From positions 1 through 12,957 of the forward strand of contig CAWVXU010000074.1 of the NCBI GenBank assembly GCA_963934255.1: 12,957 nt of DNA, in the 5' to 3' direction. The notes beneath the pieces were generated by a model. That model had not been told where the DNA came from and made no database searches. It saw only the letters and a program-made list of their open reading frames with translations. The stretch comes from an uncultured Fibrobacterales bacterium (GTDB lineage Bacteria > Fibrobacterota > Fibrobacteria > Fibrobacterales > CAWVXU01). Shown in pieces: positions 3,221 to 12,957 of this stretch; the first letter of the stretch is position 1, and every line of letters starts with the position of its first letter. A program made the position numbers and the translations under genes.

Positions 3221-4582
3221 ATGGAACGAAATATGAGCACAGACAATAAGTCGGCACAAATTTTTTTTAAATCAGATATACAAGATGATTTATCTGTATC
3301 TGTTAATGTGCTCAAGCATCTCTATATGTCGATGTTGGTGGAACTTCCAAAAGAGAAAATTATTGAATTTTGGAATCAACATCCGTTCGAGTTCAATGAA
3401 GGATTATTTAAAGGGAGGCAACTTTTAGAGTCACTTTGGGAAGCCAATGTTGCTATTCCTTTGAAGTATCAATTAAAAATTTTTAATGATCTAGAAATAT
3501 TCCTTGAAAAAGACAATGTCTCACTTAAAGGCTTTTTAGACAGTTTTTATAATAAAGTTTATAAAGGTCGATTTCATTCAGCGAGTTCCTGGTTAATTAT
3601 CCTTAAACCATATTTTCGTCGAATTTTTGAAGAGAAAGACTTAAGACATTGGCTTCTTGCTCACTTTAATGAGTTTAACGAAGAATTTTATGAACATTCT
3701 GCTCATGAAATGATTCATGATAGTTTATCCGGGCAAATGCGTAAATCGGTGATGCTTTATTCTGTAGACAATGTTTCAGAGCAACCATTAGATTATGAAA
3801 CATGGGTGCTTCCTTGGGTTGTTCAGTGTCCAAATATTCTTGGTATGAAATCTTATGAGCATGTGAGAATGCTTGCAGATGCTAGACGATTGGACCAAAT
3901 TACCAGCATTGATATATCTGAACATACGGCTACTTTTAATGGCGATGTTATAGGGACAGTGATCAAATTTAAAGATTGGGTAGATAAGAATCATTTTGAT
4001 CTTGATTATCTTGGACTAGTAGATTTAGAATGTGTTTTATGCGAAGTAGATATGTTGTTGCCTTCCGGTAAAAGTCTTCAACAAGGATGTATTTATGGTG
4101 CTCCGGTCTACTTAACTGAATTTAGATATCGAGAAAACCAAAAAGCTCCTGAAAATCCATTGGCTGATTTGATTGATGCTGTCGTGTCGGAAGAGGAGCA
4201 AATTCGCAGTAATATTTCTCAAATTCATAATTCATTACTCCAGGAATTACTGCCTCAGTTTAATATCAAATATTATGAGAAGGACGAATCACTTTCAATA
4301 AATGGTGTTCATTTTATTCGAAATGTTCCAGCTAAAATTTTCGCTAAAATTATCGATGGAAACCTTAACGAGAACCAAACAATTTTCGAACATAGAGAGT
4401 TTAAACGCGATTCGAGTATTTGTTATGATTCATCAAACCCTAATTTTGAAGGACGTCTAGCTCGCCTGATGAAAAAGTTGGAGGCTGAATACCCTAGTCT
4501 TGCTATTCAAAAAACTGATCGTGGATTATTTGAATTTAACCCGCCTGCTAATATTGAATATGAAATAATTAAAGAGAATTAA
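3221..4582 (+). CDS. Putative one-component transcriptional regulator: unknown N-terminal domain plus C-terminal winged-helix-like domain (453 aa; start could be 3233)
   Basis: The C-terminal ~100 aa (YYEKDESLSING..IRNVPAKIF..FEHREFKRD..NFEGRLARLMKKL..IQKTDRGLFEF) has an OmpR/PhoB-like winged-helix pattern, recalled from the C-termini of GAF-domain regulators. Function is inferred. Confidence 0.6.
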   Translation: MERNMSTDNKSAQIFFKSDIQDDLSVSVNVLKHLYMSMLVELPKEKIIEFWNQHPFEFNEGLFKGRQLLESLWEANVAIPLKYQLKIFNDLEIFLEKDNVSLKGFLDSFYNKVYKGRFHSASSWLIILKPYFRRIFEEKDLRHWLLAHFNEFNEEFYEHSAHEMIHDSLSGQMRKSVMLYSVDNVSEQPLDYETWVLPWVVQCPNILGMKSYEHVRMLADARRLDQITSIDISEHTATFNGDVIGTVIKFKDWVDKNHFDLDYLGLVDLECVLCEVDMLLPSGKSLQQGCIYGAPVYLTEFRYRENQKAPENPLADLIDAVVSEEEQIRSNISQIHNSLLQELLPQFNIKYYEKDESLSINGVHFIRNVPAKIFAKIIDGNLNENQTIFEHREFKRDSSICYDSSNPNFEGRLARLMKKLEAEYPSLAIQKTDRGLFEFNPPANIEYEIIKEN

Positions 4583-7500
4583 AAAGTTTTAGATATCCAA
4601 ACATTTTCAGGTCCCAATAAGTCTTTGAGTTCACCAAGAAGTTCACTCTCTGGGGTTACTAAGAATTGTGGGCCCATTTCATCTGGGTGTTTCATCTTTT
4701 TTCTTTTGTTAGCAAGAAGTGTGTGTTCGCTGCCTGACTCCCCGGATTCCAGTCCAGTTGTGATGTGAAATACGATATTAGCACCTGTATCATCACCCTC
4801 AAAAGCTTCAAAACAGTATTCTAATTCTTTAAGGTCTCTCTCAAAGAAGGTCTCAGCTGGAATTCGAACATGAATAAATTTAGTCCATTTTAACCTAGCA
4901 TCTTCAATTGCAATCATTTTTTCAGCAATGAGCTGCTTGACATCTGTGGGTTGTTTGGTGTCCATATCTTTTTTGAATTCTAAACGTCCCTCTATTAGAA
5001 CCATAGAACCTTGTTCAAATTTGCCTTGAATATCTTCATAAACTTCAGGCCAAAAACAAACTTCAATATTCCCAAAGAAATCTTCGAGTGCACCAAAAGC
5101 AAAAGCTTTATTGTTTTTATTCATACGAGAATTCATACGAGATAAATACCCACCTAAAATAACCTTACCAGTATCGTCGCCATTGTCTCGAATTTTCCCG
5201 TATTTAGGCTTCTCACTTATAGGGTAGGCAAGTATTTGACCCGGGGAAAGATTGCCTGTCGTGAAGCCTTTGAGTTCGACTTGAACTGTTTCTAGTGGAT
5301 GCCCTGTAACAAAAAGGCCCATAACTTCTTTCTCTTTATCAAGCACAGCTACTTCAGTCCAAGGCACAGCTCTCTTGAGTTCTGGTTCATCTGAAACGCC
5401 ACTTTCATCTGCTCCAAATGCTTCATCAAAAAGTCCAAACTGTCCTGATTCTACGTCTTTTTTGACTTGAACAGCATAAGTAAGTGCTAAGTCAATTGAA
5501 GCATATTGTTGTGCACGATTTCCAGCAACACAATCCAAAGCTCCGGCCATCACAAGGCTTTCTAAAGCTTTGCGGTTGAGCTGCCCACATGTTGCTAAAC
5601 GTTTGACTAGATTAAATAAAGATGTATACTCACCGTCTTTATTGCGTTCACTTACCAGAGCATCAATAAAAGATTGACCGACATTTTTAATGCCAGCAAG
5701 CCCATAATTGATTTTGCCATCTAGAACTGAGAATAAGGTTTTAGATTGATTAATACTCGGTGGATAAATTTCAATTCCAATGTTTTTACATTCATCAAGA
5801 AGAATCACCAGGCGTTCAGTTGAATCAATTTCCGAACTCATATTGGCGGCCATAAATTCTGGTCCATAATGAGCTTTTAAAAATGCAGTTTGGTATCCGA
5901 TGTAAGCGTATGCGGCCGAGTGAGATTTGTTAAATGCATAAGCACAAAATGGCCCCAAATCTTCCCAAATCTTGCGAGCAACATCTTCAGGGTATCCATT
6001 GTCTAATGCGCCACCAATAAATTTAGGTTCTTCAATTGCCATCGCTTCAGGTTTTTTCTTAGCCATGATACGACGCAGAATATCTGCTCCACCTAGTGAG
6101 AATCCAGACATTTGCTGGGCAATCAGCATTACTTGTTCTTGATAAACAATAATACCATAGGTATCACCGAGAATATTCTCAAGGCGTGTATGATAACAAT
6201 CTACCTCACTCGGGTCTTTTTTGCGTTTAATAAAATTGGGAATCTGTGCAATTGGGCCTGGACGATAGAGTGCATTCATTGCAATCATATCTTCTAAATT
6301 AGTGGGCTTGAGCTGACGGAGGTAATTCTGCATTCCACCAGATTCAAACTGGAAAACCCCTACAGTTAGACCACGTCCCAATAGTTCATATGTGGTTGTA
6401 TCATTGACATCAATCTCACTAGGGATAACTTCTATGCCACGCTGTTCTTTGATTAGAGCGACTGTATCTTTAATTACTGAGAGATTTCGGAGTCCCAAAA
6501 AGTCCATTTTAAGGAAGCCAACATCTTCAGCATAAGTTTTGTCATATTGAATAACTACGGCATCATCACCAGGAGCTTTATAAAGTGGTGCAAGTTCAAC
6601 AAGAGGTTTGGGGGCAATAATAACGGCAGCGGCGTGAATACCTGGCTGTCGAACAAGGCCTTCTAACTTTAGTGAATCTAGCCATACATCACGTAAAGGT
6701 GCACCCGATTTGACAAAAGCATCTTGAATTTCATCAAAGTCATCTGCATATTCCTCACCCTTAGTACCAGGTGGAAGAGCTTTACTTGCTGGGCGCTTAA
6801 GACCCTTAAGTAGAGCCGGAAGAAACTTAGTCAGAGCATTTATTTCATTATGATCTTTGTCCCGAACACGACCTACATCTTTAAGAACTGCTTTGGCTTT
6901 GAGGCGGCCATATGTGACAACTTGAGACACACAATCTGCACCATAGTGATCGGTCACATATTTGATAACTTTTTCACGGTCTTTATCTGAGAAATCAGTG
7001 TCAATATCCGGCATGGATACACGTTCAGGGTTGAGAAATCGCTCAAAAAGAAGGTCAAATTTCAGTGGATCAATATCTACAATGCCAGCAATGTAACAGA
7101 CTACGGATCCCACAGCTGATCCACGTCCAGGACCTACAGGGATGTCTTGATCTCGAGCCCAGTTAATGAAATCCTGTACAATCAACATATATCCAGAGAC
7201 CTTCATCTCTTTCATAATGCGAAGCTCTGTGTTGATTCGATCTTTAATTGCTTCTGTTACCTCAGCATAACGTTCATGAACTTTGGACCATGTGAAGTGA
7301 GCCAAATAATCATCTGAATTATTAAATCCTTCAGGGAATTCATATTTGGGCCAATAGGTGTCACCAATCTCAGGCTGCTCTCTCAGGTTAATCTGACAAC
7401 GCTCAGCAATTTTTCCAGTATTTGCCAAGGCCTCTTGGTCATTCGGAAAAAGAGATTCCATTTCTTCAGTGCTCTTAAGGTAGTATTGATTGGTAGGGAA

Positions 7501-8305: not shown

Positions 8306-10177
8306 TTAGAAATTCTCAAGTATTTTTAGATTTGAAATTGTCCCAATCTCAATTTCAATTTTTTCATTAGTTTTTTCTAATTGAGCTCGAAGGATTTCTT
8401 GAGTTTCAGGGTCGACCTCTTTGGGATGAATGACAGCCTTTTGAGTGGTCTTTGTTTTCCAAAAAATTTCTAACTGAAAGTCACATATAATACAATATCT
8501 TAGGATTCTTAGAATTTGTGGAGGGTTTAAATCTTTAAAGCTACTACCGTATTGACTAAGTTCACCCATTTGAATTTGGTTATCTAAGTTGATTTCTCTA
8601 CTAGGATATTGGATTGTATCTTCTTCTTGAGTGGCTCTAGATGTTGATGTAGAGAAATTATTTTGCCCGACAAATATTTCATCATCATAACTTGGATGAT
8701 ACCCGAGTTGTTCTAAAAGATATTTTGCGTTTTCTTCGCCCGCTTCTTGGAGTATAAATCCAAATTCAGGAAGTTCTTTAATAATATACTGAGAGAAGCT
8801 TGTAATTCCTTTGAGAGTTTCACGAGTACTTTTAGTTGACACTTCTAATAGAAGTGGACGACTAAATTTGGCTTCTTTGAATGAATTCATCCAATCATTG
8901 ACACTGACTCGCGGAGTAGGAGGAAGTTTTACCCAGTCAAGACAGTCTTCTACATCTTGAAGGTTGATTTTTGAGCTTAAAGCTTTAATAAATCGAGATT
9001 TCTCCAGGCGATATTTCATCACTCGGTCATCTGTTGTGGCTTTAGCTATGCACTCTAAGATAAATAGATGCTGACTTTGCTGTTGAACACCAACAACGAC
9101 TTCAAAATCTGGAGTACTAAACGCAGATTGATCCACAAACATTTTATCTAACTCTCCGCCCTGCAATACATGTCGGGCAAGAGGAGTCATTTGACCTAAA
9201 GTAATCTCATTGTTTTTGGCGCTAAACTGAACTAAGCCTAAACACCAAGCTTCTTTCAAAGCATTAGGAAGGTCAGTCCAATGAATTGAATGTGTTTCCT
9301 GAGTTAGTTTTGGAATAAGATTATCTGGAGCAAGCACCCACCAATCAGCTAAAATATCATTGATATTGGCTGGGTTTTCGGCACGCATAAGAACTTCAAT
9401 TAAATGAGACTGTGTCCAATTCACTTTGTGGAGCCAGAAGTCAATTAATTTTAAGTAAATCTCACCGGGTGTTTCAATTGATTTTTTAAAATCAGGATTA
9501 AGAACCATTCCTTCATCTGTGTATTGTAAGTCTTTGGTCTCTTTTCCAAATTCAATAAGAAAGTTAAGCTCACTTGAGGCAAGCGATTTGTCCACATTTA
9601 GAGCAAATTCGAATCTTGATTCCATTGAGGTGATGTTGCGACGATGGGGTTCACCTGTTTGCGAAAGTTTCCAGGGGCTCAATTGAACTTGAGCTGCAAG
9701 TGAGATATAGTGATAACTAATCATCATACTATAATCAAGCCACGCAGGGCGAGATGTATCCGTTACCACAGTATAGGAAAGAGTTTCAAAAACAAAACTG
9801 CGAAGCTCTTTAAATCCATATATACGCTCTTCGTTTTCGCTTTCGCCTTTGGCTGTATAACAAATCAAGTGCCACGAAAAATTAAGAATTGTGTCTTTAA
9901 TGAGAAATCGTTCAGATTCGGGTACAAAAAGTAGAATTTGACTTTTGGTGATGCCGCGCTTACCTGAAGAATATATTGCTCTGACTATGGATTTCTGTAG
10001 ATCAGAAAGTTCAGATATTTGTGCCTTAATCCTTTCATCATCAATAGCCCAAGAAGTAATATCCTGAATAAGCCTTGAATTTTGAATAAGACCACCAGAT
10101 TGTTCTAGATTACTTTGGTGAACCTTGTTTAAAAATGTTTTAGGAGCTTGATTTAAATAATATTCTAATGATTGCAA
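8306..10177 (-). CDS. Helicase-associated protein with XPB/Ssl2 N-terminal (Helicase_C_3-like) domain and possible WYL-like C-terminus (623 aa, TTG start)
   Basis: Segment TPDFEVVV...LECIA...DRVMKYRLEKSRFIKAL...LPPTPRVSVNDW fits the Helicase_C_3 pattern. The C-terminal helix plus beta strands (ILRYCI..LEIFW..IHP..IEIGTISNL) resembles WYL/Sm-like domains. No Walker A/B motifs seen. Confidence 0.65.
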   Translation of the reverse strand: MQSLEYYLNQAPKTFLNKVHQSNLEQSGGLIQNSRLIQDITSWAIDDERIKAQISELSDLQKSIVRAIYSSGKRGITKSQILLFVPESERFLIKDTILNFSWHLICYTAKGESENEERIYGFKELRSFVFETLSYTVVTDTSRPAWLDYSMMISYHYISLAAQVQLSPWKLSQTGEPHRRNITSMESRFEFALNVDKSLASSELNFLIEFGKETKDLQYTDEGMVLNPDFKKSIETPGEIYLKLIDFWLHKVNWTQSHLIEVLMRAENPANINDILADWWVLAPDNLIPKLTQETHSIHWTDLPNALKEAWCLGLVQFSAKNNEITLGQMTPLARHVLQGGELDKMFVDQSAFSTPDFEVVVGVQQQSQHLFILECIAKATTDDRVMKYRLEKSRFIKALSSKINLQDVEDCLDWVKLPPTPRVSVNDWMNSFKEAKFSRPLLLEVSTKSTRETLKGITSFSQYIIKELPEFGFILQEAGEENAKYLLEQLGYHPSYDDEIFVGQNNFSTSTSRATQEEDTIQYPSREINLDNQIQMGELSQYGSSFKDLNPPQILRILRYCIICDFQLEIFWKTKTTQKAVIHPKEVDPETQEILRAQLEKTNEKIEIEIGTISNLKILENF

Positions 10178-10263: not shown

Positions 10264-11121
10264 TTATCCTATTAAGCTTAGTGCGCCTTGAGGTACAGCA
10301 TTTGCTTGTGCAAGCATTGAAGTTGCTGATTGACTCAAAATCTGGCTCTTAGTGAATTGAGTTGATTCAGTTGCAAAGTCAACGTCACGGATACGAGATT
10401 CAGCATCTTGTGTGTTGAACTCCTGATTGGAGATGTTGTTAATCGCATGTTCAAGACGATTCACATAAGCACCCACATCAGAACGCATGTTGTTCACAGA
10501 TGTAATTGCATCATCAATTGAGCCAATTGAAGCTAGAGATGCTGCCTGAGTAGATACACCAACTGAGGTAGCAGCACCTGAAAGTCCAAGAGCTCCAGCA
10601 GTAATGCCGTCAATCTGGAGGGTCAAGTTATCAACTCCAGCAGCATTATTAGCGCCAATGTGAAGAACTGATGAAGCTGATCCTACGCCACCAAAGGAAG
10701 AAGATCCACCTGCGACTAGTGTTTGTCCGTTATACTGCGCACTATTTGCGATACGGTCAATCTCATCTGTTAGAGCCGTAAACTCTTGATCTAGATAGCT
10801 GCGGTCAGTCGAAGTCAAGGTATCATTCGCTGATTGGATAGCAAGTTCACGCATACGTTGAAGGATATCAGAAATTTCGTTACCAGCACCCTCAGCAATT
10901 TGCAAAAGTGCAATTCCGTCTTGAGCATTAGAGCGAGCTCTTCCCAAGCCACGAACCTGAGTGCGTAATTGTTCAGAAACTGATAGTCCAGCAGCGTCAT
11001 CCGATGCACGGTTGATGCGAAGACCTGTTGATAGTTTTTCTAAAGACTTTCCTTGAGCATGGTTTGAAGCAGCCAAAGAATTTTGTGTGATCATTGATGA
11101 AATATTATGATTAATACGCAT
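10264..11121 (-). CDS. fliC: Flagellin, minimal type (285 aa)
   Basis: MRINHN, LEKLSTGLRINRASDDAAGL, LQRMRELAIQSAN, NRLEHAINN, ESRIRDVDFA, QILSQSATSMLAQAN; strong SD GGAGG. Confidence 0.98.
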   Translation of the reverse strand: MRINHNISSMITQNSLAASNHAQGKSLEKLSTGLRINRASDDAAGLSVSEQLRTQVRGLGRARSNAQDGIALLQIAEGAGNEISDILQRMRELAIQSANDTLTSTDRSYLDQEFTALTDEIDRIANSAQYNGQTLVAGGSSSFGGVGSASSVLHIGANNAAGVDNLTLQIDGITAGALGLSGAATSVGVSTQAASLASIGSIDDAITSVNNMRSDVGAYVNRLEHAINNISNQEFNTQDAESRIRDVDFATESTQFTKSQILSQSATSMLAQANAVPQGALSLIG

Positions 11122-11125
11122 GTTA

Positions 11126-11180
11126 GTAACCTCCGTGTTACGTTATTTATTAACCCCCAATTGCATCCTTGCGTTGGGGG
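11126..11180 (-). promoter_or_regulatory. Two CsrA-type GGA hairpins in the flagellin 5' UTR, the second overlapping the SD
   Basis: CCCCCAA-C-GC-AAGGAU-GC-AA-UUGGGGG (11180-11154) and GUAAC-ACGGAG-GUUAC (11141-11126), both with ANGGAN loops. Confidence 0.8.
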
Positions 11181-11206
11181 TGTTGAGCAATGTGTCTCTA
11201 CTTAAC

Positions 11207-11234
11207 ATATCGCCTTTTCAAGGAAAAATCTTTA
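11207..11234 (-). promoter_or_regulatory. Sigma28 (FliA/SigD)-type promoter of the flagellin at 10264-11121
   Basis: TAAA-N16-GGCGATAT, one mismatch from the SigD consensus TAAA-N16-GCCGATAT. Confidence 0.85.
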
Positions 11235-11454
11235 CTCTTTTATGGGAAATAATTTCTTTTAATATTTTAACTCTATATTTCAAAGGGAGTTATGGCGGTG
11301 TTTTTTTTGGCCACTTTTTTTTAGAGTGTGTTAATGTTAATCTAGAAGTTAAAGTAAAACTTAGCCTAAGGGAGTGTTTGAATATCGAACGGATAAATTT
11401 GCCGATTGGTAGAGAGATTCAAGATTGTTTTGCTGGAATTATTCTGAAGACCTC

Positions 11455-11490
11455 AAAAAAAGAAAAGCTCCGGAGTTACCGGAGCTTTTC
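11455..11490 (-). terminator. Rho-independent terminator closing the intergenic small transcript
   Basis: Minus strand GAAAAGCTCCGG-TAACT-CCGGAGCTTTTC (perfect 12-bp stem) followed by T7. Confidence 0.85.
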
Positions 11491-11556
11491 ATGGAGGTTT
11501 AAATATCGAAGCTTTTAAAGACTTGTAATTTAAAATACGTGTCGCCATACACGTAC
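11455..11556 (-). ncRNA. Candidate sigma28-dependent small RNA (~100 nt)
   Basis: Bounded by a sigma28-type promoter and a terminator. Has a 5' hairpin UACGUGU-AUGGCG-ACACGUA and an AU-rich middle ending in AAACCUCCAU. Transcript ends are inferred. Confidence 0.65.
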
Positions 11557-11561
11557 TTTCT

Positions 11562-11589
11562 ATATCGCCTCATAGCGAGAGATTCTTTA
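11562..11589 (-). promoter_or_regulatory. Orphan sigma28-type promoter
   Basis: TAAA-N16-GGCGATAT. It shares TAAAGA, GGCGATAT and a downstream AAGTA at the same offset with the promoter at 11207-11234. Confidence 0.8.
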
Positions 11590-11651
11590 GCTTTTTATTT
11601 AATAGGTAGATTTTATTTTAAAAAGAATAGCCTATATATAGCGAAGTAATC

Positions 11652-11682
11652 AAAAAAAGCCCCACCTAAAGAGGTGGAGCTT
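11652..11682 (-). terminator. Rho-independent terminator of the flagellin at 11705-12559
   Basis: Minus strand AAGCTCCACCT-CTTT-AGGTGGGGCTT ending in a T7 run. Confidence 0.9.
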
Positions 11683-11706
11683 AAATATTTGAACCAAAAT
11701 CTTATT
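11652..11706. repeat. 55-bp direct repeat, copy 1 (flagellin stop codons, 3' UTR and terminator)
   Basis: Identical to 12903-12957. Confidence 0.95.
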
Positions 11707-12559
11707 AGATGAGTCCAAGAGCTCCCTGAGGAACGGCATTTGCTTGAGATAACATAGAAGTAGCAGATTGTGATAAGATCTGTGCTTTGGTAAACTGAGT
11801 AGACTCAGTTGCAAAGTCAACATCCCGAATACGCGATTCTGCATCTTGGGTATTAAACTCTTGATTAGAGAGGTTGTTAATCGCATGTTCAAGACGATTG
11901 ACATAAGCACCTACATCAGATCTCATATTGTTCACAGAGGTAATTGCTGTGTCAATAGTTCCGATGGCTGCAAGTGAAGATGCTTGAGTCGATACACCTA
12001 CATTAGTTGCCCCACCAGTTATCCCAATAGCGCCTGCAGTGATGCCATCAATTTGAAGGGTCAAGCTATCAGTACCAGCAACATCATTTGCACCAATGTG
12101 AAGAATAGATGTGGCAGAACCAGTGCCACCAAATGATGAAGATCCACCAGTCACAAGCTCTTGTCCATTATATTGAGTAGAATCTGCAATACGGTCAATT
12201 TCATCAGTGAGAGCAGTAAACTCTTGATCGAGATATGAACGGTCAGTCGAAGTCAAGGTATCATTGGCAGATTGAACCGCAAGCTCACGCATACGTTGTA
12301 AAATGTCTGAAGTTTCGTTTGCAGCACCTTCAGCGATTTGAAGAAGTGCAATGCCATCTTGAGCATTTGAACGAGCGCGACCTAGGCCACGAACTTGTGA
12401 ACGTAATTCTTCTGACACCGAAAGTCCAGCTGCGTCATCTGATGAACGATTGATGCGAAGACCAGTTGAAAGTTTTTCTAGTGATTTACCTAGTGATTTG
12501 CCTGTAGAACCCAGTGCATTCTGTGTGATCATTGAATTGATATTGTGATTGATACGCAT
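11705..12559 (-). CDS. fliC: Flagellin, minimal type (284 aa), paralog of 10264-11121
   Basis: Same conserved flagellin N- and C-terminal motifs. About 39 substitutions in 284 aligned residues by manual count (~86% identity). Tandem TAATAA stop. Confidence 0.98.
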   Translation of the reverse strand: MRINHNINSMITQNALGSTGKSLGKSLEKLSTGLRINRSSDDAAGLSVSEELRSQVRGLGRARSNAQDGIALLQIAEGAANETSDILQRMRELAVQSANDTLTSTDRSYLDQEFTALTDEIDRIADSTQYNGQELVTGGSSSFGGTGSATSILHIGANDVAGTDSLTLQIDGITAGAIGITGGATNVGVSTQASSLAAIGTIDTAITSVNNMRSDVGAYVNRLEHAINNLSNQEFNTQDAESRIRDVDFATESTQFTKAQILSQSATSMLSQANAVPQGALGLI

Positions 12560-12902: not shown

Positions 12903-12933
12903 AAAAAAAGCCCCACCTAAAGAGGTGGAGCTT
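12903..12933 (-). terminator. Rho-independent terminator of a gene beyond the window edge (probably a third flagellin)
   Basis: Identical to the terminator at 11652-11682. Confidence 0.85.
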
Positions 12934-12957
12934 AAATATTTGAACCAAAATCTTATT
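12903..12957. repeat. 55-bp direct repeat, copy 2, running to the window end
   Basis: Identical to 11652-11706 (offset 1251 bp). Confidence 0.95.

Follow-up and report, generated by a model that had tools for sequence, protein, structure and literature searches.

A conserved sigma28-type unit between two flagellin genes of an uncultured Fibrobacterales bacterium: a candidate small RNA with predicted pairing to the leader of a third flagellin

The window (the whole analysed stretch of DNA, 12,957 nt) is contig C74 of the assembly of an uncultured Fibrobacterales bacterium (genome G000; 2.67 Mb, 92% complete), and the sequencing runs containing this stretch are marine. It carries mutL, dnaE and two tandem flagellin genes on the minus strand, whose products share 77–81% identity with flagellins of Fibrobacterales MAGs. 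The same genome has further flagellins (C128 and C48) and flagellin-like genes (C36 and C131), and genes for FliA, CsrA and FliW are present in the assembly. Searches of this 92% complete assembly gave no match for Hfq (PF17209; controls matched in 5 of 14 cases) or for ProQ (PF04352), which leaves the absence of either protein unproven.

The final 55 bases of the window (12903–12957) are an exact copy of 11652–11706, and a contig from run X2 extends past the window end into the 3′ end of a flagellin gene. This indicates at least one further, unassembled flagellin upstream, with a near-identical 3′ end; its leader could be a second target of the candidate RNA described below. The C128 flagellin was ruled out as the gene immediately preceding the window, because L096 has a different 3′ flank. 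Two long frames, 8306–10177 (minus strand, 623 aa) and 3221–4582 (plus strand, 453 aa), had no match in NCBIfam or Pfam; in the genome G001, a gene of a length similar to the former is placed between the flagellins and dnaE. The region of interest comprises the following features:

11705..12559, minus strand: upstream flagellin, 284 aa
11652..11682, minus strand: terminator of the upstream flagellin; it insulates the unit, whose promoter box lies 60 nt downstream
11562..11589, minus strand: sigma28 (FliA)-type promoter box of the unit, TAAAGA-N14-GGCGATAT, the same boxes as at 11207–11234
11455..11556, minus strand: candidate small RNA of about 102 nt, start inferred to about ±2 nt; homolog at L095:3–105
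11535..11556, minus strand: 5′ hairpin of 7–8 bp, 20 consecutive bases of which are identical in L095
11499..11534, minus strand: weak central stem, predicted in L095 too; its 3′ strand carries seed A and the first half of seed B (see below)
11455..11490, minus strand: intrinsic terminator, 12-bp stem (11490–11462) and U run to 11455
11207..11234, minus strand: sigma28-type promoter of the downstream flagellin itself, TAAAGA-N14-GGCGATAT
10264..11121, minus strand: downstream flagellin, 285 aa

A preliminary description of this DNA had proposed a stand-alone sigma28 unit with the boxes of the neighbouring flagellin promoter, and the motif search agrees with it: at up to one mismatch, TAAAGA-N14-GGCGATAT matches the window only at 11589–11562 and 11234–11207, while 200 shuffles yielded 0.01 matches on average and never two. 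Under a weight matrix built from the flagellin promoters at related loci, the box of the unit reaches 19.0 bits, the top value in the window and the 13th among the 62 genome hits of at least 14 bits. The two hairpins were also found as described. The 5′ hairpin (11555–11536), at the expected (inferred) transcription start, has 7 bp, or 8 bp counting one G-U pair, and the 12-bp terminator with its U-tract follows about 100 nt later. The insulation of the unit likewise holds on both sides, upstream through the flagellin terminator hairpin (11682–11657) and downstream through its own terminator and the separate promoter of the next flagellin (11234–11207).

The folding of a 105-nt strand (−32.6 kcal/mol, z = −5.5, 0 of 200 shuffles as good) is owed mostly to the terminator, since z is only −1.5 without it. 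Between the central stem and the terminator sits a free stretch, CCUCCAU. Among the 145 sigma28-like boxes of at least 12 bits in the genome, six are accompanied within 150 nt by a terminator-like hairpin, the strongest of these being that of the unit. At a further box of 15.7 bits (G000:C25:8488, plus strand), a hairpin with a U run comes after only about 40 nt and probably terminates the upstream gene. Some 70–85 nt below the terminator of the unit, a degenerate copy of seeds A and B (11371–11389, minus strand) lacks a promoter box of its own and is perhaps a relic of duplication. The Rfam search that the preliminary description had called for found no family at the gathering threshold (best scores over the unit 16.7 and 14.4 bits, E = 1 and 4.7) and had no matches in seven related loci.

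One true homolog was found, in the first 105 bases of the metagenome contig L095 from a second species. There the RNA lies upstream of an orthologous flagellin (83–84% amino acid identity; sister branch support 96/92). The RNA is identical in 84 of 110 aligned columns, against 114 of 226 in the spacer behind it. Besides the unchanged 5′ hairpin, the central stem is kept with an altered sequence, and one terminator pair is changed from C-G to U-A. Conservation of both hairpins, proposed earlier as a check, was thus seen in this relative; the promoter lies outside its contig, which begins at the hairpin, as does the target leader. Covariation is confined to that one terminator pair, with none from RNAalifold, which was run on two homologs whose terminators MAFFT had misaligned. 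Both frames in the RNA, of 19 and 17 codons, stop after seven codons in L095 and leave no space for a ribosome-binding site (RBS), which argues that the unit is non-coding. At the stop codon of the downstream flagellin of L095, positions 1261–1270 form a 10-nt complement of the 5′ loop region of the RNA, possibly a 3′-UTR sponge like Vibrio FlaY and possibly a chance match.

Within the species, the X2 sequence differs from window positions 11100–11621 by nine substitutions and one deletion, none of them within 11455–11556, where about two would be expected, a difference that is not significant; this strain comparison covered 4 of the 13 DNA runs. Model R2, built from the window and L095 sequences, matched only the genome of the window among 151 genomes of the class (including G004 and G007). 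A DNA search of 40 relatives returned short terminator-like matches only, and a search of viral contigs with the 5′ hairpin had no match. An overlapping plus-strand frame of 132 aa (11120–11518) was rejected as a gene: it has no Pfam match, beyond the flagellin leader it is not kept in L095, and in two runs it carries a frameshift at 11315. Taken together, conservation, the lack of an Rfam match and the FliA gene in the genome support the earlier proposal of a stand-alone, non-coding, sigma28-type candidate RNA of no known family.

Standard RNA libraries lose RNAs of about 100 nt. Metatranscriptome contigs from four of the six RNA runs (X14, X15, X17 and X18) cover both window flagellins and none covers 11212–11670; such contigs show presence, not absence. 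The X14 and X15 contigs, which come from one study, stop at 11198 and 11199, immediately below the flagellin promoter, and were not counted as support.

The preliminary description had named no target. According to our analysis, the evidence points to likely base pairing with the leader and RBS of a third flagellin, the tsaD-linked one on contig C128, which lies outside the window and has a sigma28-type box of its own (19.6 bits). Three seeds of the RNA are exactly complementary by computation to the C128 leader, with 8 + 8 + 13 = 29 nt in total:

11542..11549, minus strand: seed K, 8 nt, in the 5′ hairpin loop; complements the loop of a C128 leader hairpin at −63..−56 (predicted loop-loop kiss)
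11503..11510, minus strand: seed A, 8 nt; complements −26..−19 of the C128 leader, with an alternative weak pairing across the start codon
11490..11502, minus strand: seed B, 13 nt, anti-Shine-Dalgarno; complements −15..−3 of the C128 flagellin

The 2.67 Mb contain the complement of seed B at two places, one being the unit and the other the RBS of the C128 flagellin. Seeds K and A match, besides C128, only 3 and 9 of the 2349 start regions, none of them a flagellin; these regions were predicted mechanically. None of 20,000 dinucleotide shuffles of the RNA reached 29 nt and one had three sites; with seed B excluded, two further sites of at least 8 nt appeared in 8 of 20,000. These statistics are not blind, as the seeds and the 8-nt cut-off were picked after the match had been seen. 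When the start regions were ranked by summed duplex energy, the C128 flagellin came first in six of eight settings and second and fourth in the others; by plain base count its ranks were 1, 1, 2, 3, 3, 4, 16 and 82. In a comparison of 201 flagellin leaders from Fibrobacterota it again ranked first. Seed B finds only 7 Watson-Crick pairs in each of the two window flagellins, and for this reason the upstream flagellin is not the best target.

Seed B forms the strongest of the three duplexes (−18.1 kcal/mol against opening costs of 6.0 + 3.8), and with a weak extension over the start codon the duplex was calculated at −24.3 kcal/mol. Seed K is favourable as well (−10.9 against 1.7 + 1.3 kcal/mol), while seed A is marginal (−6.6 against 3.5 + 2.9 kcal/mol). 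In L095, seed K is unchanged, 11 nt of seed B are kept, and seed A differs by one base, a change that would improve pairing to an AUG instead. A seed of the anti-Shine-Dalgarno type favours RBSs in general, and flagellins of other species are matched by seed B too, among them a G007 leader over 14 nt. The seeds K, A and B follow one another 5′–3′ in the same order as their sites on the mRNA, where sites A and B are 3 nt apart. This order suggests that simultaneous pairing of A and B would hardly be possible in a 1:1 complex, and it shows that the unit is not a simple inverted copy of the leader. The C128 leader carries one GGA in a hairpin loop and a second in the RBS, the latter covered by seed B.

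Our reading of these sequence features, which we consider probable, is that the unit encodes a FliA-driven small RNA acting as a translational repressor of one flagellin paralog, the C128 flagellin. The RNA would be made together with the late flagellar genes, and its 5′ loop would first kiss the matching loop of the C128 leader. The free CCUCCAU would then invade the Shine-Dalgarno region, with the weak central stem unzipping to give 13 bp, maybe across the AUG. The 30S subunit would be shut out, the C128 flagellin would drop relative to the paralogs having only the 7-nt match, and the make-up of the filament or its timing would shift as this flagellin falls. Because seed B covers the Shine-Dalgarno GGA, the RNA may act alongside the CsrA-FliW switch, competing or relaying with CsrA at this GGA. 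Since Hfq and ProQ were not found, the two RNAs may pair unaided by a chaperone, or with help from CsrA, which can promote sRNA-mRNA pairing in Bacillus (PMC6546359). The sign of the regulation is read from the position of the pairing, since FlaX of Vibrio also activates some flagellins.

This activation by FlaX (bioRxiv 10.64898/2026.08.28.747715, in its available part) leads to another reading, in which the same RNA and the same target would produce a net rise or protection of the flagellin, through displacement of CsrA from the Shine-Dalgarno GGA, remodelling of the leader or stabilisation of the mRNA. The presence of CsrA and FliW, the two GGA motifs of the C128 leader and the pairing of the G004/G007 unit mostly with upstream GGA loops and not with the RBS would all fit. 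We nevertheless regard it as unlikely, because the strongest helix covers −15..−3, the RBS itself, and the exclusion of the 30S subunit by a small RNA lying over the RBS is an established mechanism. A real sigma28 RNA might also carry a general anti-Shine-Dalgarno seed repressing many late or middle flagellar and other mRNAs, with C128 as only one target. The complement of the 7-nt core occurs 137 times in the genome, 10-nt matches lie at the RBS of the C36 flagellin-like gene and of a C76 gene, and CJnc170 has been suggested, in the available part of PMC11187230, to control several genes; the 13-mer matches C128 alone, however, and the few other start regions that seed K or seed A matches include no flagellin, which makes such a broad action quite unlikely.

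That the unit is no functional trans-acting RNA, and that it is instead an insulator, an attenuator or a remnant of promoter duplication or of an inverted copy of the leader, with complementarity by chance or history, appears improbable. Flagellin arrays do duplicate promoters and terminators, as in the copy of 11652–11706 at the window end. Against this stand the conservation of the RNA but not of the spacer, the separate promoter of the downstream flagellin and the shuffles, none of which scored as well in 20,000; an inverted copy, moreover, predicts a reversed order of segments, whereas the order here is the same. As for a CsrA-titrating RNA or a small-peptide gene, CsrA is present and the RNA holds the two short frames, but its one GGA is paired in the terminator stem and absent from L095, where both frames are also broken, so that either function is very improbable. 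Repression of the C128 flagellin is the probable reading, for a unit that is real, conserved and non-coding and has a specific predicted target.

Regulation of this type is already known from Vibrio and Campylobacter. As described in the available parts of the sources, Vibrio FlaX contacts the flaB leader by pairing at three sites, prevents binding of the 30S subunit and alters filament composition (PMC11879080); RNase E releases it from the 3′ UTR of the mRNA for the sigma54-dependent major flagellin, and it binds ProQ (PMC11879080; bioRxiv 10.64898/2026.08.28.747715). The window RNA resembles FlaX in originating from a flagellin locus and in having three sites, here computed only, in the leader of a paralogous flagellin, one of them over the RBS; an effect on filament composition is predicted likewise. 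It differs in possessing its own sigma28-type promoter behind a terminator in place of 3′-UTR processing, in the predicted loop-loop kiss, in its phylum and in a genome whose 92% complete assembly gave neither the FlaX partner ProQ nor Hfq. By this comparison of descriptions, the window RNA in its predicted action works like FlaX but is not a FlaX member.

In Campylobacter jejuni, a CsrA-FliW organism, FlmR (CJnc170) is an unprocessed FliA-dependent non-coding transcript of 47 nt, suggested to act on RpoN-dependent genes, and FlmE (CJnc230) has two stem-loops around a single-stranded anti-Shine-Dalgarno seed, is RpoN-dependent and processed, and represses FlgM (available part of PMC11187230). 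The window unit is like FlmR in origin, being stand-alone and non-coding with a FliA-type promoter box in a genome with FliA and CsrA/FliW genes (for the window, the likeness extends to the box and the genes), and like FlmE in the shape of stem-loops around an anti-Shine-Dalgarno seed. Its best target, however, has its own sigma28-type box and is not an earlier-class RpoN-dependent gene, and three dedicated sites on one flagellin leader are not described for either RNA in the available part of that paper. The sigma28-dependent UhpU, MotR, FliX and FlgO of E. coli are Hfq-bound and UTR-derived; three of them pair with flagellin mRNA, mostly inside the coding sequence of fliC, the single flagellin (PMC10578931, available part). 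A sigma28-type promoter and a flagellin mRNA as the predicted partner are shared with these RNAs, whereas the window unit is bounded by terminators on both sides, is not UTR-derived and lies in an assembly where Hfq was not found. CsrA-FliW is a protein-based repression of flagellin leaders with two GGA motifs, as for C. jejuni flaA and B. subtilis hag (PMC4894983, available part); the C128 leader has this two-GGA design and csrA and fliW are present, but in this case the molecule lying over that RBS site would be an antisense RNA. CsrB, CsrC and RsmZ have many single-stranded GGA loops, in contrast to the single paired GGA of the window RNA and none in L095.

Units of like design were found in other Fibrobacterota. 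Scans of fetched loci (188 in one of them) for a sigma28 box followed by a terminator revealed units 60–100 nt long close to flagellins: two each in G001, G004 and G007, and others in L025, L085, L044 and L097; G004 and G007 are close relatives and not independent. These units share a sigma28 box, a terminator and a seed against a flagellin leader or start, and most of them pair with a flagellin start of their own genome. When each RNA was compared with the flagellin leaders of its own genome for the longest exact helix (90 nt, 500 shuffles, L044 left out), the window RNA gave 13 nt (reached by 0 shuffles), L025 16 nt (0), L085 15 nt (0) and L097 10 nt (1), and helices of 10 nt were obtained for G001a (7), G001b (9), G007a (21) and G004a (24). 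The last two have a 15-nt site at −96/−97, outside the 90 nt tested, and L095, whose target is absent from its contig, was reached by 239 shuffles. Pairing of G001a over the RBS and start codon amounts to −31.3 kcal/mol (1 of 500 shuffles).

Some candidates were set aside. The G004 and G007 “b” units are weak (18 and 33 of 500 shuffles), as they match many flagellin starts equally and their cognates rank 14 and 15 of 201. The L094 unit (410 of 500 shuffles as good) and the L143 unit, with an anti-Shine-Dalgarno facing its own downstream RBS (11 of 500), look like parts of flagellin leaders. Long flagellin leaders in L143 (2791–3001) and L137 (2795–3001) have an internal anti-Shine-Dalgarno stretch facing their own RBS, and in L143 this stretch is followed by a terminator-like hairpin; an attenuator or a leader-derived RNA is possible there. 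L204:6227–7819 (G007) and L205 (G004) encode a flagellin of 530 aa, which carries a large insertion in its centre and starts at TTG, behind a weak RBS; in the second sigma28 unit, which follows this gene, the first hairpin differs between the two genomes by a compensatory change. In G001, a second unit of the stand-alone sigma28 kind lies away from any flagellin (L206, about 6020–6135); its two seeds, of 10 and 9 nt, are directed at a flagellin encoded on a different contig, where they face the GGA loop and the start region.

In G000, G001, G004, G007 and L085, the flagellin predicted as target is the first one to follow tsaD; this linkage was not seen in the loci of L068, L044 and L097. In the protein tree the flagellins cluster by genome and not by target status. 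Agreement in order between seeds and sites, as in the window RNA, is seen for two sites in the “a” unit of G004/G007 and in the “b” unit of G001. Start-region seeds also fit foreign flagellins with the same start, which is specificity for a class and not for a species. The terminator loops match the 5′ end of the leader of their own target over 6–7 nt, with both sides changing together in four cases only: UGCCCU/AGGGCA in L085 and in L025, UGCCCA/UGGGCA in L044 and CGCCCU/AGGGCG in L097. Model R1 recovered the L044 unit, which is outside its training set, at E = 4e-6. Model R3 of these units had no match in G000 at E = 0.001 and matched 0 of 151 genomes of the phylum, and among 40 genomes it found only its own three training genomes. 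The units share a design with the window RNA; these models detected no sequence homology to it.

It is possible, although we put it forward only tentatively, that motile members of the Fibrobacterota possess a class of stand-alone sigma28 small RNAs not described before, and that each lineage would have rewritten the seeds to keep up with the leader of one designated, usually tsaD-linked, flagellin. Such RNAs would use two to three sites in a non-nested order, here a kiss followed by invasion of the RBS, would act without Hfq or ProQ on top of CsrA-FliW, and would represent an independent invention of FlaX-like control. Our literature search, which left most subscription journals outside, found no paper describing such an RNA in Fibrobacterota or Fibrobacteres; PMC9029176 mentions Fibrobacterota in a table footnote only.

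The control of flagellin ratios in bacteria with several co-induced flagellins is only partly known, with Vibrio FlaX as the worked example. The unit described here would be a second, apparently independent case, and its named target and three exact sites allow tests by compensatory mutation. It may also bear on how trans-acting RNAs find their targets without Hfq or ProQ, and on how they meet CsrA at the same site.
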